Below are positions 4,246-53,446 of a stretch of DNA of 56,298 nt, in pieces. Origin of the DNA: an uncultured Candidatus Saccharibacteria bacterium (GTDB taxonomy: Bacteria > Patescibacteriota > Minisyncoccia > Phycocordibacterales > DATDWN01); NCBI GenBank assembly GCA_964428435.1, contig CAYRYA010000002.1, forward strand, positions 43,687 to 99,984, given 5' to 3'. The notes below the pieces were generated by a model that was not told the origin of the DNA, did not search any database, and saw nothing but the letters and a program-made list of their open reading frames with translations. Made by a program: the position numbers and the translations under genes. Each line of letters begins with the position of its first letter. The stretch's first letter is position 1.

Positions 4246-5466
4246 ATGAAAGAAAAACTTTTTGGACATTGGCGAGTTATTAGTGTAGCTGTTTTTATTT
4301 TTATTATTACTTTTTTCTTGGGATTTAAAACAGGTGAATACAAAGTATCTCAAGTAGCTCTCGTATCAGGTGTTGATCATAAGAGTGGACCTAAAAATGT
4401 TGACTTTGAAGCATTTTGGAAAGCATGGAATGTTATCAATGAAAAATACGTACCAACTACATCAAGTACAACTCCAACAAATCAAGAAAAAGTCTGGGGA
4501 GCAATCCAAGGCCTTGCCGCATCAACAGGTGACCCATACACCGTCTTTTTTCCTCCAGTAGAAGCAAAAGCATTTGAAGAACAGATCAGTGGCTCATTTG
4601 AAGGGGTAGGTATGGAAGTAGATATAAAAGATGGTGTACTTACGGTTATTGCACCACTCAAAGACACTCCAGCATACAAAGCAGGTATAAAAGCAGGGGA
4701 CAAGATTATCGGTATCGACAAGAAAACAACACAAGGTCTTGATACTGGAGAGGCGATCAAACGGATCAAAGGTCCAAAAGGAAGTACGGTTTTGTTCACG
4801 ATTGTGCGCGGAGGAAGTAGTGAGCCGATTGAAATCTCAGTGGTACGTGATGTGATTGTTGTACCTGCAATGAAGATAGAGATTATTGATGATGTATTCG
4901 CTATTCACATGTATTCATTTTCTGCACAATCAGCAGATGAATTTAGAAAGGCACTTCGTCAGTTTGTAGAATCAGGTAAGCATAAACTTATTCTTGATCT
5001 TCGAGGAAACCCTGGCGGATATCTCGAGGCAGCGGTAGATATGGCAAGTTGGTTTTTGCCATCAGGTAAACTTATTGTTGCGGAACAGTCAAAAAATCTC
5101 ACGTTCTCTCAGGAATATAGAAGTCGAGGGTATAATATTTTCAATGATAAACTCAAGTTTGCTATCCTGATCGATGGAGGTTCTGCATCAGCGTCAGAAA
5201 TTTTGGCAGGAGCACTTTCTGAACATGGTAAAGCTTTTCTTGTTGGAAAGAAAACATATGGTAAAGGTTCAGTACAAGAGCTTGTAGAAATTACACCAGA
5301 AACATCACTCAAAGTAACTATTGCAAAATGGCTTACTCCAAATGGTCACTCAATCTCTAAAGCAGGTATTGATCCCCAGATTGATATTGATTTGGATGTG
5401 GAAAAATTTAGAACAACAGGGGAAGATACTCAGCTGAAGCGTGCCATTGAAGAACTTGACAAGTAA
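4246..5466 (+). CDS. ctpA: Carboxy-terminal processing protease (S41) with PDZ domain
   Basis: 406 aa. It has an N-terminal TM helix, a PDZ block (GDKIIGIDKK), the catalytic-Ser block GGSASASEI and the Lys block TYGKGSVQ. Confidence 0.9.
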   Translation: MKEKLFGHWRVISVAVFIFIITFFLGFKTGEYKVSQVALVSGVDHKSGPKNVDFEAFWKAWNVINEKYVPTTSSTTPTNQEKVWGAIQGLAASTGDPYTVFFPPVEAKAFEEQISGSFEGVGMEVDIKDGVLTVIAPLKDTPAYKAGIKAGDKIIGIDKKTTQGLDTGEAIKRIKGPKGSTVLFTIVRGGSSEPIEISVVRDVIVVPAMKIEIIDDVFAIHMYSFSAQSADEFRKALRQFVESGKHKLILDLRGNPGGYLEAAVDMASWFLPSGKLIVAEQSKNLTFSQEYRSRGYNIFNDKLKFAILIDGGSASASEILAGALSEHGKAFLVGKKTYGKGSVQELVEITPETSLKVTIAKWLTPNGHSISKAGIDPQIDIDLDVEKFRTTGEDTQLKRAIEELDK

Positions 5467-24934: not shown

Positions 24935-25618
24935 ATGGATCAAAAATTGGCCTGGGAAAAAGAATACAAAAACCCTACTTTTCTAACTAAAGAAATGGAA
25001 CCTCAAGCGGACACGGTCCGTTTCTTTAAATTTCTTAAAAAAGAAGAAAAGTTTGCGTTTGAAGGGAAGAAATTAATTGACCTTGGGTGTGGCACAGGGA
25101 GAAATTCTTTTTATGCAACTGAACTCGGACTTGAGGCTACCGGTATCGATATTTCTAAAACTGCCATTGCTGAAGGTGCAGAGTATGCAAAAGCACATAA
25201 TATCAAGGTTAATCTCAGTGTTGGTTCTATAGGTGAAAAGCTGACTCAAGAAGATGAGAGTTTTGATGTTGTTCTCGACGTCACCTCATCCAACTCGCTC
25301 ACAGAGCAAGAGCGAGAAATATATTTTGAAGAAATGCATCGAGTATTAAAACCAGGTGGGTATGTGTATGTGAAAGCATTGTGTAAAGATGGTGATAGTA
25401 ATGCAAAAGAGCTCCTCAAGCGCTTCCCAGGACCGGAAAAGGATACGTATGTGTTACCAGAACAAAAGATAGTAGAGCGAGTGTGGACAAAAAAAGATAT
25501 CTCAGATTTTTATGCTCGAAAATTTAACATACGTAATCTGGAAATGAAAGAAAGTTACACCACTATGGGGGATAGACGATACAAACGACGATTTTGGATT
25601 TGCTACATGCAAAAATAA
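24935..25618 (+). CDS. Class I SAM-dependent methyltransferase
   Basis: Motif I LIDLGCGTGRNS, GIDIS and VLKPGGYVYV. Confidence 0.8.
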   Translation: MDQKLAWEKEYKNPTFLTKEMEPQADTVRFFKFLKKEEKFAFEGKKLIDLGCGTGRNSFYATELGLEATGIDISKTAIAEGAEYAKAHNIKVNLSVGSIGEKLTQEDESFDVVLDVTSSNSLTEQEREIYFEEMHRVLKPGGYVYVKALCKDGDSNAKELLKRFPGPEKDTYVLPEQKIVERVWTKKDISDFYARKFNIRNLEMKESYTTMGDRRYKRRFWICYMQK

Positions 25619-25621
25619 CTA

Positions 25622-25649
25622 TTGACACATTAAAAATAACATGTACTAT
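25622..25649 (+). promoter_or_regulatory. Sigma70-like promoter
   Basis: TTGACA (25622-25627), a 16-17 nt spacer, then TACTAT/ACTATA (25644-25650). Confidence 0.55.
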
Positions 25650-25685
25650 AGAAACTACATGAAAAATACATGTAATCAACTAAAT

Positions 25686-25787
25686 ATGGGAGTCAACGGC
25701 CGAAAGGGGCTTGCTTCTTTTGCTGTGCGACCAATTTCATACCACTTTGCCACAACATGGTCAGGTGGTCGATTGCGCTGTGTATAA
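25686..25787 (+). CDS. Candidate 33-codon leader peptide / small ORF upstream of the ABC exporter
   Basis: The ATG ORF reads MGVNGRKGLASFAVRPISYHFATTWSGGRLRCV. It sits between a promoter and an intrinsic terminator. There is no clear SD. The stretch is visibly GC-richer than its surroundings, so it may be structured RNA instead. Confidence 0.3.
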   Translation: MGVNGRKGLASFAVRPISYHFATTWSGGRLRCV

Positions 25788-25816
25788 AGTATTTAACCCT
25801 CTGTTAAATCCTTTGA

Positions 25817-25849
25817 ATACCGCGTAATACGCGGTATTTTTGTTCTTTT
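25817..25849 (+). terminator. Intrinsic terminator / attenuator upstream of the ABC exporter
   Basis: An 8-bp stem (ataccgcg / cgcggtat) with loop taata, followed by ttttgttctttt. It lies 40 nt upstream of the 25890 ATG. Confidence 0.7.
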
Positions 25850-25889
25850 GCTCTTTTACATTAATTCACATTAGGAAAGGTAAGGTTAG

Positions 25890-27689
25890 ATGAAAAACAA
25901 TCCACTGGTTAGCCTTTTTACGGCTCTGTGGCACTACTCGGCAGGAAACAGAAGGACAGTTGCATTATTTTGGTTGATGTTTGTACTCAATGAGGCAGTT
26001 AACATTGTGGTGCAACCGTTACTGACAGCGAAAATCCTTAATTCCATTCAGACCCATCAAGGGGTCAATGAGGGTAATCTTTTAACTCTTTTCGGGTATC
26101 TTGGACTCATGCTTGGAGCAACTCTGTTTTTCTGGATGCTCCATGGTCCGGGAAGAATCTTGGAGCGCAGTAATGCATTTAAGGCCCGAATAGAGTATCG
26201 AAAGTTTTTACTTAGTGGAGTGATGAATCTTCCATTGGAGTGGCAGGCAGAACATCATTCTGGTGACACGATCGAGAAGATCAAAGAGGGTACAGGTGCA
26301 CTCTTTGATTTTGGAAGTGGTACCTTCGTTATTCTGTATTCGTTGACTCGACTGTTAGTTTGCTTCGGTATACTGGCATATCACAGTCATCTTGCGGTGC
26401 TCGTTGCACTCTCAATGATGCTCGTGAGTGCTTGGATCATCATGCGTTTTGATCGGGTATTGATACCTCAGTATCGTGACTTGTCACGTGCTGAGAATAA
26501 GATATCTGAGAGCGTGACGGATGCCACGGGCAACATCTCGACAGTAATAATCTTGCGGGTTGAGAAAGTGGTGTTCAATGCGATTGTCAAAAAGCTTGAA
26601 AAGCCTTATGACATGTTCGTAACGAATATAAAGTTGAGTGAGTGGAAATGGTTTCTCACAAACTTTTGCTGCAGAGTAATGGTCTGTCTCTCGCTCGGTG
26701 TATACTTCTGGCAACAAAGCCGTAGTCATGCTGTCTTTGAGATTGGTGTGTATTACCTTCTTCTCAGTTATCTGGAGAAGGTGAGTGAACTGTTCAATCG
26801 TTTTTGTGAGTTGTACGGAGATATTGTGATACGGAGAACTCGAGTGATGAATGCCGAAGTGCTCTCAAAGGATTTCAAAGAAACCACAAACTTCACCAAT
26901 CACGTGCTTCCGGAAAACTGGCAAAAACTCGAGATCAGAGATCTCTCTTTTTCATACCATGGAAAAGATGGTGATATGCATCTCAATAAGATTTCACTTT
27001 CTCTCAAACGAGGTAAGAGGTACGCTTTTGTGGGGGAGAGTGGAAGTGGAAAAACAACACTCCTTAAGTTAATACGAGATTTGTATCATCCACAAAAACT
27101 CACGCTTTCAGTCGATGGAGTGGTAATACCCGATGGTTTCGAAGGTATCAGTCGAGCAATCGCACTGATACCACAAAATCCTGAAATATTTGCCACGACG
27201 ATTTTGGAAAACATCACTCTTGGAGTTGAATATTGTCTTTCTTTCGTCCTTCGATTCACCGACATGGCTTGCTTCACAGACGTGTTGAAAAGTTTACCTC
27301 AGGAAGATAACGATGGTATTAATCATGGAGGTTTTGGTTGCTCAATTAAAGAAAAAGGAGTCAATCTCTCCGGCGGTCAACAGCAGCGCTTGGCGCTCAC
27401 TCGAGGACTGCTCGCCTGTCACGATAAAGCTGTTGTTCTTCTTGATGAACCAACGAGTAGTCTCGATGCCGCCACAGAAATGGATGTGTATCAGAATATT
27501 TTTGAAGGTATGGCAGGGAAAACGATCATCTCGTCTATTCATCGGTTGCATCTGCTCCCACTTTTCGACACAATCTATCTCTTCGATAAAGGGGAGATTA
27601 TTGGAGAGGGGACATTGAGAGAGTTGCTCGCTACTTCTCCTGAGTTTCAACAACTCTGGAGCAAGTACAACAAGTTTCAGGAAGTATAA
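25890..27689 (+). CDS. Fused ABC exporter (TMD-NBD, type I exporter)
   Basis: 599 aa. Six hydrophobic segments are followed by Walker A GESGSGKTT, signature LSGGQQQR and Walker B VVLLDEPTS. Confidence 0.9.
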   Translation: MKNNPLVSLFTALWHYSAGNRRTVALFWLMFVLNEAVNIVVQPLLTAKILNSIQTHQGVNEGNLLTLFGYLGLMLGATLFFWMLHGPGRILERSNAFKARIEYRKFLLSGVMNLPLEWQAEHHSGDTIEKIKEGTGALFDFGSGTFVILYSLTRLLVCFGILAYHSHLAVLVALSMMLVSAWIIMRFDRVLIPQYRDLSRAENKISESVTDATGNISTVIILRVEKVVFNAIVKKLEKPYDMFVTNIKLSEWKWFLTNFCCRVMVCLSLGVYFWQQSRSHAVFEIGVYYLLLSYLEKVSELFNRFCELYGDIVIRRTRVMNAEVLSKDFKETTNFTNHVLPENWQKLEIRDLSFSYHGKDGDMHLNKISLSLKRGKRYAFVGESGSGKTTLLKLIRDLYHPQKLTLSVDGVVIPDGFEGISRAIALIPQNPEIFATTILENITLGVEYCLSFVLRFTDMACFTDVLKSLPQEDNDGINHGGFGCSIKEKGVNLSGGQQQRLALTRGLLACHDKAVVLLDEPTSSLDAATEMDVYQNIFEGMAGKTIISSIHRLHLLPLFDTIYLFDKGEIIGEGTLRELLATSPEFQQLWSKYNKFQEV

Positions 27690-27721
27690 GAAGTAAACAT
27701 TTCCTGTGTGAATTAAATTCG

Positions 27722-27754
27722 ACTCCATCGCTTAACCGGCGATGGAGTTTTTTT
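27722..27754 (+). terminator. Intrinsic terminator of the ABC exporter
   Basis: A 10-bp stem (actccatcgc / gcgatggagt) with a 7-nt loop, followed by T7. Confidence 0.8.
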
Positions 27755-27789
27755 GAAGATTTTTGATTATGTATTTACAAAAAAAGCAA

Positions 27790-28165
27790 TTTAAAAGACC
27801 GGGACAAACCGGTCTTTGTGCTATTTTGCCGTGACGAGGATAGCTCCTCCGGTTTTTTGTTTTGGCTGTACCTTGAAGAGTTTCCTGTCTCTCCTTTTTT
27901 ATTTATTCCATCTTTCCTTCACTTTCTCACTTCTCTCATGACTCTTCATCATTACCTGATGGGGTTTGTCGTAAGGTTCGTGACATCTTACGCTCGTTTC
28001 ATTTTCTGTTTAGCGTCGAAACGATAACGCTTTTCTAGATAACCATGCTTGGCTCCTTTTTTGATCTTGATCTATGTAGGATTTTACCTTTCATAGATCG
28101 TGTTTGCCCCAATTTATCCTGCGCCAAAGGGGCGGGCGCACTCATCTAAATTTTTGTTGCATCCT
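27790..28165 (-). ncRNA. Candidate novel ~375-nt non-coding RNA (ORF-less transcription unit)
   Basis: The minus-strand promoter is TTGACA (28199-28194), 16 nt, TATAAT (28177-28172). The minus-strand terminator is agaccgg/ccggtct (27796-27815) followed by a T-run. The longest ATG ORF I read is 19 codons. Several local hairpins and a ~70-nt purine-rich tract with 9 GGA motifs are present. Confidence 0.45.
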
Positions 28166-28290
28166 GGGTATATTATAGCACTATATATAAACTTGTCAAG
28201 TATTTTTTAAACTCTTTTCTAACCCTGTAAATTAGTCTCAAACCCTTCATTTTCCTAAAAGACGAGTATAAGTGACAAAAAACAAGATAT

Positions 28291-28318
28291 TTGCATGATT
28301 TTTTATATGTGGTATTAT
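28291..28318 (+). promoter_or_regulatory. Sigma70-like promoter for the 28513 gene
   Basis: TTGCAT (28291-28296), a 16-17 nt spacer, then TATTAT (28313-28318). About 195 nt of leader follow. Confidence 0.5.
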
Positions 28319-28449
28319 TAGATGGTAATGATACGAATCAAAAATCAGTCAGCTTCATGGCATTATTATATGCACACCGTCTCACAGAGGGCTGATTTTT
28401 GCGCTATAGAAAACATATAATACTCATTTTCTTCAATACCTAGAACGCA

Positions 28450-28482
28450 AATACCAGTCCTTTCGGGCTGGTATTGTTCTTT
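28450..28482 (+). promoter_or_regulatory. Terminator-like hairpin in the 5' leader (possible attenuator)
   Basis: An 11-bp stem (aataccagtcc / gggctggtatt) with a UUUC loop, followed by gttctttg. It lies 30 nt upstream of the ATG at 28513. Confidence 0.5.
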
Positions 28483-28512
28483 GTAAAATCTATTGAAAAG
28501 GAAAAGATTTCT

Positions 28513-29784
28513 ATGTTTACGAGTTTGTCGATCAAACCCTGTGCGGATATTACACTTCGCCAGCTTATCGAGCTAAAGAACCAAGGGCATTCGGTGTATC
28601 GGACGTCTCATGCCGGTAACTGGAATCTTTACAAGCTTATCTTGTCAGAACTCGGACTGCCGGATTGCATCTGGGATGTCACCTGTATGCACAAGGATGT
28701 GAATAATCAACCAAAAGTTCAACTGGTTGGTGGTCGTCAAATTTCTCTCGTAAGTCCTGACAGTTATTCTGTCCCGACTCTCGGAGAAAAACATCTCACG
28801 GCGTATCAGAAACCAAGAGAGTATCCGAATGATACTCTTTCCAGTTTCCATGTTCATCCGCTGAGGAGGTTGTTTCCAGGGGTCATCACGACACAATCGG
28901 AAGTACTTCTTGAGTATAAACATGAATTGGAGATCATTTTCGACATTGTAGAGCGGTATCATCCACAGTGGCTTGGACGCTATACCTTGCCGTGTGGGTG
29001 TATGGTTGAAATAAAATCCAGATTCTCAGTACGATATGCAGAATGTATACATTCGAGAGTTGAGATTAAGCCGCGCATCCTTGGGGAATCGGCGATCAAC
29101 ACTCTGGAAGAACTCAGAAGACTTGTTTTGGATCCGTCAGGCTACATACCTCGTGGCGGTGTAGTCTACTCGTTTGAGCTGGTTGTTACATGTTATTACT
29201 TGTGGTGTTACTGGAAATTTGGGGATAAAACAATCTACCAATTATCTGGTCCCGACATGATTGGGTATGCGACAAAGCCAGACTTCATTCGAAGAGTGAC
29301 TGCTGTTCTCAGGCTTGTTGGGGATCATGCTCCGCAGCTTGTTCCACGGCATGTGGATGTAAAAATTGTTCCCGCTACCTATATGCGATTTGGATATGTG
29401 GAAGGGGACAGCGGTGTTTCAAAAAAGGTGATGGACGCTCACTACGAGGTCTTTACATTGCAAGAACGTAAACGTCAGAACAGAGGTAGCGTTCAAGTAA
29501 TAAATGAAGCGGATGCTGTGTTAAGAGAAGTTATCCCTATAATTGACCAATACGGTTCTTCATGGGATTTATTTCACAATCCGGCAAAAGATGCTTTCTA
29601 TTCTCAACACGATATGGCTCAGACAGGAGGTCGAGTCAAGATAATGGATGGATTTTTGGATGTCTCATTTCAAGCCATGGGGGAAATTTTACGGACATTA
29701 CCCCAAATCGAAGCAAGTCTTCGAAGTAAATTCTTGTGGAAAGGGTCTTGTAGCCAACCAATCATGGAAGATTCTTTTCGATAG
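28513..29784 (+). CDS. Hypothetical protein (423 aa), orphan, visibly higher GC
   Basis: A clean long ORF with the start trimmed to the first ATG. It is rich in Cys, Trp and Arg and has no recognisable motif. It has its own promoter, leader and terminator. Confidence 0.7.
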   Translation: MFTSLSIKPCADITLRQLIELKNQGHSVYRTSHAGNWNLYKLILSELGLPDCIWDVTCMHKDVNNQPKVQLVGGRQISLVSPDSYSVPTLGEKHLTAYQKPREYPNDTLSSFHVHPLRRLFPGVITTQSEVLLEYKHELEIIFDIVERYHPQWLGRYTLPCGCMVEIKSRFSVRYAECIHSRVEIKPRILGESAINTLEELRRLVLDPSGYIPRGGVVYSFELVVTCYYLWCYWKFGDKTIYQLSGPDMIGYATKPDFIRRVTAVLRLVGDHAPQLVPRHVDVKIVPATYMRFGYVEGDSGVSKKVMDAHYEVFTLQERKRQNRGSVQVINEADAVLREVIPIIDQYGSSWDLFHNPAKDAFYSQHDMAQTGGRVKIMDGFLDVSFQAMGEILRTLPQIEASLRSKFLWKGSCSQPIMEDSFR

Positions 29785-29793
29785 AGGAGGTTT

Positions 29794-29824
29794 GTGGCAA
29801 GTCTTTTACTTGCCACCATTTTTC
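29794..29824 (+). terminator. Intrinsic terminator
   Basis: A 9-bp stem (gtggcaagt / acttgccac) with loop cttt, followed by catttttc. Confidence 0.7.
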
Positions 29825-29884
29825 TACTTTGAATACGATATTAAAAGTAGAAGTATGGTGTGTTACTATTAATTATATAAAAAA

Positions 29885-30817
29885 ATGAATCCAATTATTG
29901 ATTTACATCAAGACTTGATCTTGTATGTCTCTCGACCTGAATTATATAAAGACACAGGACAGACAAGTTTTGAAAAATTAAAAAATAATAATATAAAAGT
30001 GACTGTTGTCTCAGCTTTTGTCGTACCTTCCGATGGTGATTATAAAAGTGATCAGATGAATGGGTTTATAGAAAAAGCTTTGAAAGACTATGTGATGTAT
30101 TGTGATAAAAATCCATCTTTTCGTATTATCAAAAATAAAGATGATCTCAATACAGTTATGTCTACAGAAGGGCTCTGTGGCCTCATACTGCATATCGAAG
30201 GGCTCAATACATTTAATGAAATTACCGGGTGGGATACACTTGAGCAGTGGTATGAGCTTGGTCTTCGATCAATTGGTCCACTGTGGAATATAAATAATCC
30301 TTTTGGGGGAGGTACGCTCGATCCTTCTCTTGGTTTAAGTGAGCTCGGTAAGAAATTGATTACATGGTGTGAACAAAAAGGGGTATTGTTTGATTTTGCT
30401 CACATGAATGAAAAGACATTTTGGAATGCATCACAGGTTGTTTCTCGGCCAATTTTCGTGAGTCATGGTAATACGTCTGCACTCTGCAAGAATGTAAGAA
30501 ACTATACGGACGAACAAATAAAAGTTATTGGAGAAAGTGGTGGTGTTATCGGAGTATTTTTCTCAAAGAAATTTATTTCCGCAGATGAGAACCCCACTAT
30601 TGATGATGTGTTAAAACATATTAATCATATTGTTACTGTAGTCGGTGAAAATGCTGTTGCAATTGGCTCGGATTTTGGAGGGATTACTTCTGGTTTTGCA
30701 AAGAAATTGGAATCTATAGATGATGTCCAAAATCTAATTACGAGTCTTCCGTATGATATACAATCAAAAATATCCTACGAAAATGCTTTACGGATTATTA
30801 AAGCTCATTTGGTTTAA
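29885..30817 (+). CDS. Membrane dipeptidase family (peptidase M19)
   Basis: 310 aa. It has IDLHQD (the HxD metal site), HIEGL, FDFAHMNE, VSHGN and IGSDFGG, which are typical renal-dipeptidase blocks. Confidence 0.8.
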   Translation: MNPIIDLHQDLILYVSRPELYKDTGQTSFEKLKNNNIKVTVVSAFVVPSDGDYKSDQMNGFIEKALKDYVMYCDKNPSFRIIKNKDDLNTVMSTEGLCGLILHIEGLNTFNEITGWDTLEQWYELGLRSIGPLWNINNPFGGGTLDPSLGLSELGKKLITWCEQKGVLFDFAHMNEKTFWNASQVVSRPIFVSHGNTSALCKNVRNYTDEQIKVIGESGGVIGVFFSKKFISADENPTIDDVLKHINHIVTVVGENAVAIGSDFGGITSGFAKKLESIDDVQNLITSLPYDIQSKISYENALRIIKAHLV

Positions 30818-30835
30818 TCCGATTAAATTGTTAAT

Positions 30836-31795
30836 ATGAATTATATGAAAAAAACCTTGCTTTCTGGTGTAAAACCAACAGGACGACCACATATTGGGAA
30901 TTATTTTGGGGCAATGAGACAGTTTGTTGATATGCAGGATGAGTATACTGCTCTATACATGATTGCAGACTATCATGCACTTAATTTTATTCAAGATGGT
31001 TCAGAAATGAAACAGCAAATTATTGATCTAGCTCTCGATTATCTCGCCTTAGGACTTGATCCAAATAAATCCTTGATATTTAAACAATCAGATGTACCTG
31101 AACATACAGAATTTGCATGGATTTTTGATACTATTACCACAATGCCGTACCTTATGCGTGCTCATGCCTACAAAGACGCGGAAGCAAAAGATAAAGAAAT
31201 TAGTGTAGGAACATTCAATTATCCAATGCTTATGGCTGCTGATATTTTACTCTATGATACTGATGTGGTTCCTGTAGGGCAGGATCAGAAACAACATGTA
31301 GAGTATGCACGAGATACTGCACTTAAATTTAATCATACGTTTAAATCTGAAGTGCTGAAGTTGCCTGAAGCTAAAATCATTACTGAGGTTTCAGTTGTAC
31401 CAGGAATTGATGGGCGAAAAATGTCAAAAAGTTATGGAAATACGATTCCACTTTTTGCGAGTGATGCAGAAATAGAAAAAGCAGTTATGTCTATTGTGAC
31501 AGACTCTGGTTCTGAAAGACCAGAAAATGTATATGCGATACATAAGCTATTTAAAACCGAAGCAGAACTCACACCTCTTTATGAAGAAAACAAAGGAAAA
31601 TATAAAATTCTGAAAGAAGCCTTAATTTCCGACCTTAAAGCGTTTATTGGTCCACTTCGTGAAAAACGAGCTCAGCTCGCATCAGATACAGACTATGTGC
31701 TTGATGTACTCAAAGAAGGTGGTCAACGTGCCCGAGAAAAAGCAATACGAAAGATGGATGAAGTAAAAGAGGTGATAGGGGTGAAGTTATACTAA
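30836..31795 (+). CDS. trpS: Tryptophan--tRNA ligase
   Basis: HIGH-type motif GRPHIGNYFG, KMSKS and GQDQKQH. The start may be Met4 (30845). Confidence 0.95.
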   Translation: MNYMKKTLLSGVKPTGRPHIGNYFGAMRQFVDMQDEYTALYMIADYHALNFIQDGSEMKQQIIDLALDYLALGLDPNKSLIFKQSDVPEHTEFAWIFDTITTMPYLMRAHAYKDAEAKDKEISVGTFNYPMLMAADILLYDTDVVPVGQDQKQHVEYARDTALKFNHTFKSEVLKLPEAKIITEVSVVPGIDGRKMSKSYGNTIPLFASDAEIEKAVMSIVTDSGSERPENVYAIHKLFKTEAELTPLYEENKGKYKILKEALISDLKAFIGPLREKRAQLASDTDYVLDVLKEGGQRAREKAIRKMDEVKEVIGVKLY

Positions 31796-51307: not shown

Positions 51308-53350
51308 ATGGAATTCAAAGAATTCTGGAATCAGTACAGCTGGGTAATTCTCGCTGCACTGTTCGTATTGTTTCTGACTCTCTACAAGTGGACCCTCCGG
51401 TTGCTTGGGGTGTATATTATCCCAGACAATTGCATCGGCACCGTCGTCAAAAAGTTTGTGCTTTTCGGTGCGAACAAACAACTGCCCCCGGGCAAGATCG
51501 TCGCTCTCAAGGGCGAGGCCGGCATTCAGGCCGATACGCTTGCCCCCGGTCTACACATTGGCCTCTGGCCGTGGCAGTACGATGTCACCATTGAAGAACA
51601 ATGGGTCGTCGAACCCGGACATGTTTGTGTAATTGAAAGTTGTGATGGTCAACCACTTCCTCCCGGGCGAATCATCGCGCGGCAAGTGAACTGTGACAAC
51701 TTCCAGGATGCGCGTGCATTTTTGGAAGGTGGCGGTGAACGTGGTCCACAGATGGGGCTACTATCACCAGGTACCTGGCGCATAAATACGCTCGTCTTTT
51801 CTGGAACCGATGTGGAAATGACAACTATCGAAGCGGGGGAGATCGGCGTCGTCGAGGCGCGTGACGGAAAGCCGCTTACCGGTGGCCGCATCATCGGCCA
51901 AACCGTCGAGTGCGACTCGTTTCAAGATGCCCGCGCCTTCATCGAAGGTGGCGGCGAACGCGGCCCGCAAATGGCAATCATTCCACAGGGAACCTATCGG
52001 ATCAACACGGTATTGTTCCATGTGGAAAAGGCGAAGGTTACTGACGTGCCCGATGGCAAAATCGGCATCATCACCACCCGTGAAGGTACTCCGCTCAAGA
52101 CTGGCGACATCGCTGGTCCGGAAGTTCCGGGACATAACATGTTCCAGGATCCTATGGCTTTCGTCAAAAATGGCGGAAACAAGGGTCTGCAAGAACAGGT
52201 GCTCCTCAACGGCCGTTACTTCATCAATCCGAAGTTTGCAACCGTCGAATTCGTCGATCAGACGAACGTCCCGATTGCGAATGTCGGTGTCGTGGTGGCG
52301 TATGTTGGACGAGATGGAAAAGATGTCACCGGCGAGAATTTCCGTCACGGCAACCTTGTTGCGACTGGTGAAAAGGGTGTCTGGGTCAACCCGCTTGACC
52401 CGGGCATGTACCCGATCAATCCGCACACCCACAAAGTGAAGATTGTGCCGACGGCGAACGTGGTCCTCAACTGGGCCACCGGGCGCACCGAAAGTCACAA
52501 TCTGGATGCAAAGTTGTCCACGATTACCGTCCGATCCGCGGATGGCTTCTCGTACAACCTCGACGTCTCGCAGATCATCCATATCCCGCGCAACGATGCC
52601 CCTCGGGTCATCGCTCGTTTCGGGAGCATGGAAGCGCTCGTCACTCAGGTGCTCGAGCCGACCATTGGCAACTACTTCCGTAATACGGCGCAGGGTTCAG
52701 ATGTCATCGATTTCCTGACCAAGCGCACCGAGCGGCAGAAAGAAGCAAAAGAGGCCATCGCTCGTGCCCTCGCCGACTACAATGTCGGTGCTGTGGAAAC
52801 CCTCATTGGCGACATCAATCCGCCCGCGGAATTGATGAAGCCTTTGACCGAACGTAAGGTTGCAGAAACGCAAAAGCACACCTTCGAAGTGCAGACCGAA
52901 GCCCAGGCGCAACGCCAGCAGCTCGAACAAGCCAAAGCCCTCGCCGATACGCAGCCCGAAGTCGTGGCTGCGGAACGGAAAGTTGCCATTGCCAAGTTCA
53001 ACGCCGAGTCGGCTGTTGCTGAAGCTAAAGGTCACGCTGAGTCCAAGACCATCAATGCCAAGGCCGACGCCGAAGTGACCCGTGTCACCGGTGACGCCGA
53101 AGCGAGCAAAGTGCTCGTGATTGGTGAGGCTGAGGCAAAGGTCATCAAGCAGAAGATCGAGTCCATGGACGCGGGCAACTATGCTGTCGTCCAGGTCGCT
53201 CAAGCTCTGGCCACGGCTGGGGAAAAGGGGATGAAGATCGTCCCCGACGTCCTCGTCAACGGTGGCAGTGCCACTGGCGGCAATGGTGGCTCGATCGTTG
53301 ATGTCCTGATGGCGAACCTGATTCGGGACAATCTGAAACCACGCAACTAA
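51308..53350 (+). CDS. SPFH/Band-7 (flotillin/YqiK-like) membrane protein with five tandem N-terminal beta-modules; GC-rich, probably foreign
   Basis: 680 aa. An N-terminal TM helix is followed by repeated modules (…DG.PL..GRII….V.CD.FQDARAF.EGGGERGPQ…GT.RINT…), an SPFH core, and an Ala/Glu/Lys-rich flotillin-type coiled coil. Shadow ORFs on the opposite strand are typical of high-GC coding sequence. Confidence 0.85.
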   Translation: MEFKEFWNQYSWVILAALFVLFLTLYKWTLRLLGVYIIPDNCIGTVVKKFVLFGANKQLPPGKIVALKGEAGIQADTLAPGLHIGLWPWQYDVTIEEQWVVEPGHVCVIESCDGQPLPPGRIIARQVNCDNFQDARAFLEGGGERGPQMGLLSPGTWRINTLVFSGTDVEMTTIEAGEIGVVEARDGKPLTGGRIIGQTVECDSFQDARAFIEGGGERGPQMAIIPQGTYRINTVLFHVEKAKVTDVPDGKIGIITTREGTPLKTGDIAGPEVPGHNMFQDPMAFVKNGGNKGLQEQVLLNGRYFINPKFATVEFVDQTNVPIANVGVVVAYVGRDGKDVTGENFRHGNLVATGEKGVWVNPLDPGMYPINPHTHKVKIVPTANVVLNWATGRTESHNLDAKLSTITVRSADGFSYNLDVSQIIHIPRNDAPRVIARFGSMEALVTQVLEPTIGNYFRNTAQGSDVIDFLTKRTERQKEAKEAIARALADYNVGAVETLIGDINPPAELMKPLTERKVAETQKHTFEVQTEAQAQRQQLEQAKALADTQPEVVAAERKVAIAKFNAESAVAEAKGHAESKTINAKADAEVTRVTGDAEASKVLVIGEAEAKVIKQKIESMDAGNYAVVQVAQALATAGEKGMKIVPDVLVNGGSATGGNGGSIVDVLMANLIRDNLKPRN

Positions 53351-53410
53351 AAATTGCTCTCAAAAATTAAAAGTTGTCTTGGTTTGCAGGACAATTTAGT
53401 ACAAATAAGC

Positions 53411-53446
53411 AAAAGCCTCGGGACGGTTGTCCCGAGGCTTTTTTCG
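53411..53446 (+). terminator. Intrinsic terminator of the SPFH gene
   Basis: A 13-bp stem (aaaagcctcggga / tcccgaggctttt) with loop cggttg, followed by a T-run. Confidence 0.8.

Follow-up and report, generated by a model that had tools for sequence, protein, structure and literature searches.

A candidate clade-restricted family of structured RNAs in CPR/Patescibacteria with a possible riboregulatory role in trans

Several kinds of bacterial RNA gene combine an independent transcription unit with an elaborate fold. The sponges CsrB, RsmY and RsmZ use GGA sites to sequester CsrA dimers, while the raiA motif, OLE, ROOL and GOLLD RNAs are longer than typical small RNAs (sRNAs). Small open reading frames (ORFs) are found within structured RNAs such as the dual-function sRNAs RNAIII, SgrS and SR1, and in tmRNA pseudoknots flank a very short conserved reading frame. 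For bacteria of the candidate phyla radiation (CPR/Patescibacteria), a literature search on regulatory and structured RNAs turned up no described family. Here, an RNA gene of about 360-376 nucleotides (nt) is described on the minus strand (28165-27790) of a 56,298-nt stretch of contig CAYRYA010000002.1; this whole stretch is referred to as the window. The best reading of the gene is as a member of a new, clade-restricted family of structured bacterial sRNAs that lies outside Rfam.

The unit carries recognisable signals at both ends. Its promoter matches the sigma-70 consensus at 12/12 positions, with the -10 TATAAT at 28177-28172 and an extended -10 TG at 28180-28179, and is the sole such site within 25000-31000. 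Transcription probably starts at A28165, about 7 nt past the -10 box. At the opposite end, a G+C-rich hairpin (GACCGG/CCGGUC, 27817-27794) is followed by UUUU and the unit ends at about 27790; this terminator is detected on both strands. The consensus promoter and the strong hairpin with its T run, both proposed in the initial annotation of this DNA, are borne out by these results. The 376-nt RNA folds with a minimum free energy (MFE) of -94.4 kcal/mol (z = -3.9), and none of 100 shuffled sequences folded equally well. With a consensus sigma-70 promoter and an intrinsic terminator of its own, 28165-27790 is, on the sequence evidence, a real stand-alone transcription unit. Its features are collected in Table 1.

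Table 1. Features of the RNA gene at 28165-27790, listed in the direction of transcription (PK, pseudoknot; S, stem; H, hairpin).
Feature	Position in window	Strand	Sequence or remark
sigma-70 promoter	28172..28199	-	TTGACA 28199-28194, 16-nt spacer, TGcTATAAT 28180-28172
RNA 5' end AGGAUG	28160..28165	-	AUG at +3/+4 kept in all variants
PK1, probable H-type pseudoknot	28106..28139	-	S1 GCGCC/GGCGC; S2 GCCCC/GGGGC; L3 A-rich AGGAUAAAUU
Hairpin H2	28069..28099	-	GAUCUAUG...CAUAGAUC plus apical AGG/CCU stem
AAGGAG, 6-nt spacer, AUG GUU AUC UAG	28035..28058	-	purine box and AUG kept in five variants
PK2, second probable H-type pseudoknot	27995..28030	-	S1 (H4) GCGUU/GACGC; S2 CGUUUC/GAAACG; L3 A-rich UAAACAGAAAAU
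Hairpin H5	27970..27992	-	CGUAAG...CUUACG; one both-side change, two breaks
Hairpin H6	27947..27961	-	CAUCA-GGUAA-UGAUG; hairpin retained, sequence replaced
Purine-rich tract	27881..27939	-	sequence and length variable, composition constant; contains invariant GUGAGAAAG
Hairpin H7	27875..27894	-	GGAGAG-ACAGGAAA-CUCUUC
Near-invariant 3' domain	27820..27867	-	AGCCAAAACAAAAAACCGGAGGAGCUAUCCUCGUCACGGCAAAAUAGC; contains hairpin H8
Hairpin H8	27849-27836	-	GAGGA-GCUA-UCCUC
Intrinsic terminator	27790..27817	-	AAAGACCGG-UUUGUC-CCGGUCUUU, then U run

Metagenomes from wastewater, activated sludge, freshwater and soil yielded homologues of the unit. A partial homologue (P0052) of the neighbouring ABC exporter led to locus L021, which is 81% identical to the window across 27601-28282. 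A second locus, L022, was found by an exact-pattern scan of JGI metagenomes, and the RNA of L023 is the same as that of L022. A further full-length variant is X35, and partial variants are provided by X37, X34, X12, X19, X22 and X9. For four of these (X9, X22, X12 and X19, all freshwater or aquatic runs), metagenome contigs contain fragments of the unit at 81-98% identity to the window.

Conservation is unevenly spread along the gene. TTGACA-N16-TATAAT with its TG, together with the terminator, is kept in all full copies (promoter architecture checked in L021, L022 and X35). Overall identity to the window is 74-78%, with 70-80% in the 5' domain and 55-70% in the purine linker. The 3' domain, from H7 to the terminator, is 87-91% identical, compared with 72-85% for adjacent coding DNA, and its 48-nt stretch at 27820-27867 shows no differences between the window and L021.

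As far as can be seen from sequence, the RNA family does not extend beyond a small, related set of CPR bacteria of the Paceibacteria type. A covariance model of the 3' domain, run over 202 kb, returned only the four known copies; one additional match of 19.7 bits at 53336-53443 was taken as noise. A protein-anchored scan of GTDB genomes with the ABC gene found relatives of at most 55% identity only, none of them with the RNA, and an exact scan of GTDB genomes with a 20-mer from the adjoining conserved leader gave no match. The closest ABC homologues (P0027-P0031) lie on contigs that keep the synteny and lack the RNA. Viral contigs scanned with two RNA patterns yielded nothing, and blastn against phage and plasmid collections found no similarity.

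Comparison of the variants also supports the fold. Pairs were counted on hand-defined strands, since MAFFT misaligns H2, H6 and PK1-S2 in the L022 group. Changes on both sides of a stem occur in PK1-S2, H2 (including its apical stem), PK2-S2 and H6. For instance, PK1-S2, which is formed by pairing of the S1 loop with a downstream segment, changes from GCCCC/GGGGC in the window and L021 to AUCCC/GGGAU in L022 and X35, with two pairs altered on both sides, and PK1-S1 is invariant. The stem of H2 is largely replaced in L022, where GAUCUAUG/CAUAGAUC becomes GAUGAAUGC/GCAUUCAUC through many both-side changes; in addition, a C-G pair of H2 is U.G in X35, and the apical G78-C87 pair is A-U in X12. 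PK2-S2 reads CCUUCU/GGAAGG in L021 (G-C to C-G and U-A to C-G, from a re-reading of the L021 sequence), and in PK2-S1 a U.G pair becomes C-G. H6 takes the form GGUGA-GCAGGA-UCACC in L021 and CACU-AAACUGC-AGUG in L022, X35 and X37.

Milder exchanges are seen towards the 3' end, where H7, H8 and the terminator are limited to G-C/G.U or A-U/G.U replacements, including G.U to G-C in H7 of X35 and X34 and A-U to G.U in the terminator of the L022 group. RNAalifold on the MAFFT alignment recovers PK1-S1, H4, H7, H8 and the terminator. A long-range helix between the 5' and middle parts (UUUAGAU/AUCUAGA), present in the MFE fold, was rejected as a family feature, as L022 and X35 are unable to form it.

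All four hairpins initially listed (tgcgcc/ggcgca, gatctatg/catagatc, cgtaag/cttacg and gagga/tcctc) are present. The covariation check suggested alongside them had a mixed outcome: compensatory changes were found in several helices, and the variants are too few for R-scape-grade statistics. Pairing that appears to be upheld by compensating substitutions, consistently across helices, comes from few lineages and is hence supportive and statistically unproven.

No described RNA family accounts for the unit. No part of the window reached the gathering score of an Rfam 15 model. At E<=10, the window region, L021 and L022 produced sub-threshold matches only, and RNase P RNA, tmRNA, SRP RNA, 6S RNA, T-boxes, riboswitches and ribozymes were not among them. 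ARAGORN found no tmRNA in the window, L021 or L022, and no tRNA in the window. These results bear on whether the RNA could be a housekeeping RNA (RNase P RNA, tmRNA, SRP RNA or 6S) that has diverged beyond recognition by Rfam. Its size would suit RNase P RNA or tmRNA, and the pseudoknots with a short ORF are superficially tmRNA-like. However, in addition to the negative searches, its ends form no tRNA-like domain, it finishes in a terminator, inspection by eye shows neither the CR-I nor the CR-V motif of RNase P RNA, and the gene is missing from the same locus in close relatives. A housekeeping origin is therefore scarcely credible. The initial annotation had seen no hallmarks of tmRNA, RNase P RNA or SRP RNA and had proposed a novel non-coding RNA (ncRNA). 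Both statements hold up, the second with the absence of an Rfam family, signals kept in every homologue, compensatory changes and stops in all frames.

Coding potential was assessed in the same set of variants. Each of the three locus-derived homologues has several stops in all six frames. The claim that no ATG-initiated ORF exceeds 19 codons proved incorrect, as a 36-codon ATG ORF lies at 28145-28035; it is unconserved, with its start ATG changed to ACG in L021 and the ORF absent in L022. Two shorter frames deserve closer attention. The AAGGAG box noted from the start does precede a 3-codon ORF (box, spacer and ORF together at 28058-28035); this ORF encodes MVI* in X12 and L021 as well as in the window, and spans 11 codons in L022 and X35. 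The 5'-proximal ORF (28145-28165, minus strand) encodes MQQKFR* in the window and X19, MQQRFR* in X12, 25 amino acids (aa) in L021 and 14 aa in L022. Within this ORF, X19 differs from the window by three synonymous third-position changes only, and L022 by an in-frame 9-nt deletion. This pattern may be due to chance, or may be a hint of translation.

These frames raise the possibility that the unit is a leaderless or short-leader mRNA for a micro-peptide (MQQKFR... or MVI*), or a dual-function RNA. The X19 and L022 differences would fit such a gene, as would the AUG at +3/+4 in a genome of mostly leaderless appearance and the retention of the purine box with AUG GU(U/C) in five variants. On the other hand, neither the lengths of the peptides (6, 25 and 14 aa for the first ORF, 3 versus 11 codons for the second) nor their sequences are conserved, about 350 nt of conserved structure lies outside the 5'-proximal ORF, and the changes in PK1 preserve RNA pairing yet are radical in amino acids. 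We consider a micro-peptide gene improbable. Because the peptides are unconserved and the PK1 changes are radical at the protein level, we assign the two AUGs to the RNA itself or to contact with ribosomes, and not to genes.

Translation signals elsewhere in the window are relevant in this respect. No Shine-Dalgarno (SD)-like purine box is found at 37 of the 44 gene starts, and in many cases a hexamer resembling TATAAT precedes the ATG by 5-8 nt; mRNAs of the host appear to be mostly leaderless. An anti-SD motif has been reported in only 48% of Parcubacteria (PMC9297842), and the scarcity of SD sequences observed here agrees with frequent loss of the anti-SD in that group. Since the genome hardly uses SD sequences, the AAGGAG before MVI* is probably no normal ribosome-binding site. 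For the same reason, the GGAG and AGGA motifs of the RNA are unlikely to be ordinary ribosome-binding sites, and their recogniser, if there is one, is probably something else. This weakens an early suggestion that SD-like repeats in the RNA might act as a sponge.

The composition of the RNA is unusual. Within the 56-kb window, the purine content of the unit ranks among the highest 0.15% and its AGGA count among the highest 0.3%, and no purine tract is longer than the one it contains. This tract, described initially as about 70 nt and almost free of pyrimidines, measures 59 nt at <=12% pyrimidine (27939-27881). It is highly variable, with 76 different letters in X12 and 55-70% identity. The nine GGA triplets counted in the initial annotation are indeed present; the density that had seemed telling is nonetheless not above chance, with 8.3 +/- 1.9 expected from dinucleotide shuffles (P = 0.46). 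In the homologues, observed and expected counts are 11 versus 9.8 (L021) and 10 versus 7.5 (L022). As the GGA count matches composition, the density is read as a by-product of purine richness. AGGA and GGAG alone are modestly enriched, with AGGA found 7 times against 3.3 expected (P ~0.03, dinucleotide shuffles).

It was this GGA density that had suggested a sponge titrating CsrA/RsmA, in which GGA sites would sequester CsrA dimers in the manner of CsrB, RsmY and RsmZ. Some observations fit. The gene format, stand-alone with a strong promoter and a terminator, would suit a sponge; every variant retains the H7 loop ACAGGARA; CAGGA motifs are present in PK1-L3 and, in L021, in the H6 loop; and AGGA exceeds expectation. 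Moreover, csrA transcripts are reported among the highly expressed genes of ultra-small groundwater prokaryotes (PMC9938205). Against a sponge stands, besides the lack of GGA enrichment over composition, the fact that most GGA sites are unconserved: those of the 5' AGGA, PK1-L3 and H6 are lost in L022, X12 or X19, leaving the H7 loop as the only loop GGA conserved in all variants.

Components of a Csr-type system were also searched for. The match to the RsmY model (RF00195, clan CL00106) at 27794-27919 scores 18.4 bits against a cut-off of 57 (local E=0.04), and its absence from L021 and L022 at E<=10 marks it as noise. A tblastn search of the window and of 179 kb from related loci, together less than a whole genome, did not detect csrA, which is weak evidence. 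Equally weak, in the same sequence, is the absence of credible matches to Hfq, FliW and KhpA (lowest E-values 0.024 for KhpA, over 26 aa, and 0.42 for FliW). Upstream of the -35 box, no TGTAAG-N6-CTTACA-like palindrome was seen by eye, although the box of a CPR regulator might differ. With GGA at its expected frequency, a single conserved loop GGA, a sub-threshold RsmY score and no csrA in the sequence scanned, a CsrA/RsmA-type sponge is a poor prospect, and we rate it as quite unlikely.

A more plausible role for the RNA, in our view, is that of a riboregulator. The structured RNA would be stable and act in trans, most likely by binding or sequestering an RNA-binding factor. Such a factor could recognise the invariant 3' domain together with an A/G-rich platform made up of the AGGA/GGAG motifs and the H7 loop ACAGGARA. 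The 5' pseudoknot may protect the RNA from decay that depends on the 5' end, and it may, like the conserved AUGs (one 5'-proximal, the other following the purine box), contribute to the stability of the RNA or to contact with ribosomes.

An alternative mode of action in trans is base pairing, in which target mRNAs would be bound either by an A/C-rich stretch that is invariant and single-stranded (CCAAAACAAAAAACC) or by the purine tract. The most conserved part of the RNA (27820-27867) has an apparently unpaired stretch beside the terminator, an arrangement typical of sRNA seed regions. Nevertheless, at 360-376 nt and with two pseudoknots the RNA would be long and ornate for an sRNA of the seed type. 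A duplex scan against the 44 gene starts performed no better than shuffled controls, gave unrealistic duplexes and identified no target, and no Hfq was seen in the sequence scanned, which is again weak evidence. Base pairing is accordingly rated as unlikely. Protein binding is favoured over short seed pairing because of the length of the RNA, its modular hairpins and pseudoknots with A-rich linkers, the conservation of one linker in composition only, and the invariant 3' domain.

Overall, we think it somewhat likelier to be right than wrong that 28165-27790 is a structured ncRNA gene whose product acts as a riboregulator in trans, probably by binding or sequestering an RNA-binding factor. Confidence is high that a real structured ncRNA is present, and low as to its mode of action. 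A broader proposal, that the RNA is the founding member of a new CPR/Patescibacteria class of abundant, ~370-nt pseudoknot RNAs that titrate an RNA-binding factor or the ribosome through two pseudoknots, a purine platform and a 3' domain, is speculative and we regard it as rather doubtful.

Several points weigh against the riboregulator interpretation. No RNA-seq runs containing 28165-27790 were found in a search for them. About four full-length variants are known, so that independent covariation events are few, and the sequences of X35, X37, X34, X12 and X19 were rebuilt from difference lists in which a few changes may have been missed. Parts of the fold have competitors. For H5, the segment CUUAC could instead pair with the invariant GUGAG (~27931-27927), an arrangement showing only consistent, one-sided changes; RNAalifold offers this pairing, as well as UGGUU/AGCCA in competition with the 3-bp H7b. 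Regarding mechanism, it is the anatomy of the RNA alone that points to protein binding, and no csrA, hfq, fliW or khpA partner was located in the sequence at hand. Finally, the RNA is not at the same locus in the close relatives L013, L015, L016, L018, L019 and L001, where it would be either dispensable or sited elsewhere.

The surroundings of the gene provide some insight into its history. The closest named relatives of the neighbouring proteins are in metagenome-assembled genomes (MAGs) of Candidatus Zambryskibacteria, Paceibacterota, Parcubacteria and Minisyncoccota, which identifies the host as a CPR/Patescibacteria bacterium of Zambryskibacteria/Paceibacterota-like type. The exact window sequence occurs in wastewater metagenomes. 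In the window, genes for a histidine kinase, a methyltransferase and the ABC exporter (25890-27689, plus strand) are followed by the RNA on the minus strand, a conserved leader, a 423-aa protein, an M19 dipeptidase and tryptophanyl-tRNA synthetase (TrpRS, the product of trpS). In L021, L022, L023 and X9, the immediate neighbours of the RNA are the ABC gene, to which it is convergent, and trpS, from which it diverges. As the RNA adjoins the TrpRS gene directly in these four loci, the 423-aa/M19 cassette of the window is taken to be a later insertion beside the RNA promoter.

Other relatives retain the kinase, methyltransferase, ABC and TrpRS genes, with a variable slot between the last two. In L013, L015 and L019 this slot is occupied by a minus-strand 605-aa ABC gene, and in L016 and L018 it is empty. 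In L001 an ABC gene is missing there; a tRNA-Phe(GAA) gene (4524-4603, minus strand) with its own promoter and terminator stands exactly at the position of the RNA. There it lies between the methyltransferase terminator and the conserved leader, in the locus that is the closest relative for the 423-aa gene. The ABC-trpS slot can be described as a hot spot of gene content, occupied by the 605-aa ABC gene, by nothing, by the RNA, or by the RNA with the 423-aa/M19 cassette.

A short remnant of the methyltransferase gene, derived from its 3' end, is located at 27757-27790, between the ABC terminator and the RNA terminator, and recurs in L021 (~1310-1345, ...FWIMYLQK*). The arrangement suggests an older gene order, methyltransferase / RNA / trpS, that received the ABC gene by insertion, and also that the RNA terminator may once have been shared by the methyltransferase and RNA genes. 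Such a variable slot, together with a gene remnant next to the unit, might be taken to mean that the RNA is itself a non-functional leftover, either a decayed gene or a recombination scar. Its consensus promoter and terminator are, however, perfectly kept, its stems change on both sides, and its 3' domain is better conserved than the neighbouring genes. The specific candidate, an origin from the 605-aa ABC gene in the L013 slot, was rejected, as there is no similarity to that gene or its flanks. We consider a non-functional remnant very improbable.

Other elements were observed nearby. The leader at 28291-28512 (plus strand, ~220 nt), upstream of the gene for the 423-aa protein (28513-29784), is conserved far beyond the surrounding coding DNA, with 92% identity to L001 and L002 and 96-98% in 151-nt contigs of the freshwater runs X3, X4 and X7. 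Its promoter is followed by a long hairpin ending in GAUUUUUGCG and, immediately ahead of the start codon, by a second hairpin that resembles a terminator and carries a T run. Compensating changes are seen in the long hairpin (UACC/GGUA to CACC/GGUG), and the same layout precedes homologues of ~50% identity (L003, L007). Rfam gave no match on 28291-28512. The leader may be a new cis-regulatory element, either an attenuator or a riboswitch, for a gene of unassigned family and an M19 dipeptidase.

The 423-aa protein itself belongs to no Pfam family, and has 26 relatives among 5.8 billion proteins, all on apparently CPR-type metagenomic contigs. An M19 dipeptidase gene follows it in the window, L001, L003-L005 and L007, and a partial downstream ORF is present in L002 and L006. 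Further along the window, the segment 51000-53000, inside a 680-aa Band_7/SPFH gene (51308-53350), has a G+C content of 0.50-0.56 compared with ~0.39 elsewhere, and may be foreign or compositionally odd.

A conserved, strongly promoted, pseudoknot-bearing RNA is a concrete candidate for post-transcriptional control in CPR/Patescibacteria, which are uncultured, have tiny genomes and, in the case studied here, largely SD-less, leaderless genes. The RNA could be entered into RNA family libraries, allowing its annotation in MAGs. A partner, if found, would reveal what kind of RNA-binding regulator reduced genomes retain. For now, a narrow distribution and the lack of an assigned function limit the importance of the family.

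Among described systems, tmRNA resembles the window RNA in having pseudoknots around a very short conserved reading frame and in its length of ~360 nt. The window RNA differs in that it has no tRNA-like domain or CCA-type 3' end, ends in a terminator and encodes no conserved tag peptide. With RNAIII, SgrS and SR1, it shares a structured RNA containing small ORFs with conserved start codons; unlike theirs, its candidate peptides are unconserved in length and sequence. CsrB, RsmY and RsmZ are similar in being stand-alone genes with a strong promoter and an intrinsic terminator, in having hairpins split by A-rich linkers, and in the one conserved ACAGGA loop, and CsrB is of similar length. In contrast to these sponges, the RNA has GGA sites that are not over-represented and mostly unconserved, no Rfam match to the family, two probable pseudoknots and an SD-poor CPR host. 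Csr/Rsm sponges are not known to contain pseudoknots, and CsrA systems of the FliW type are not known to use an sRNA sponge. No Rfam model of the raiA motif, OLE, ROOL or GOLLD RNAs matches the window RNA, which has a far narrower range and a handful of variants, and is shorter than OLE, ROOL and GOLLD. In its overall plan it nonetheless resembles these RNAs, being independently transcribed, longer than a typical sRNA and equipped with several conserved helices and pseudoknots.

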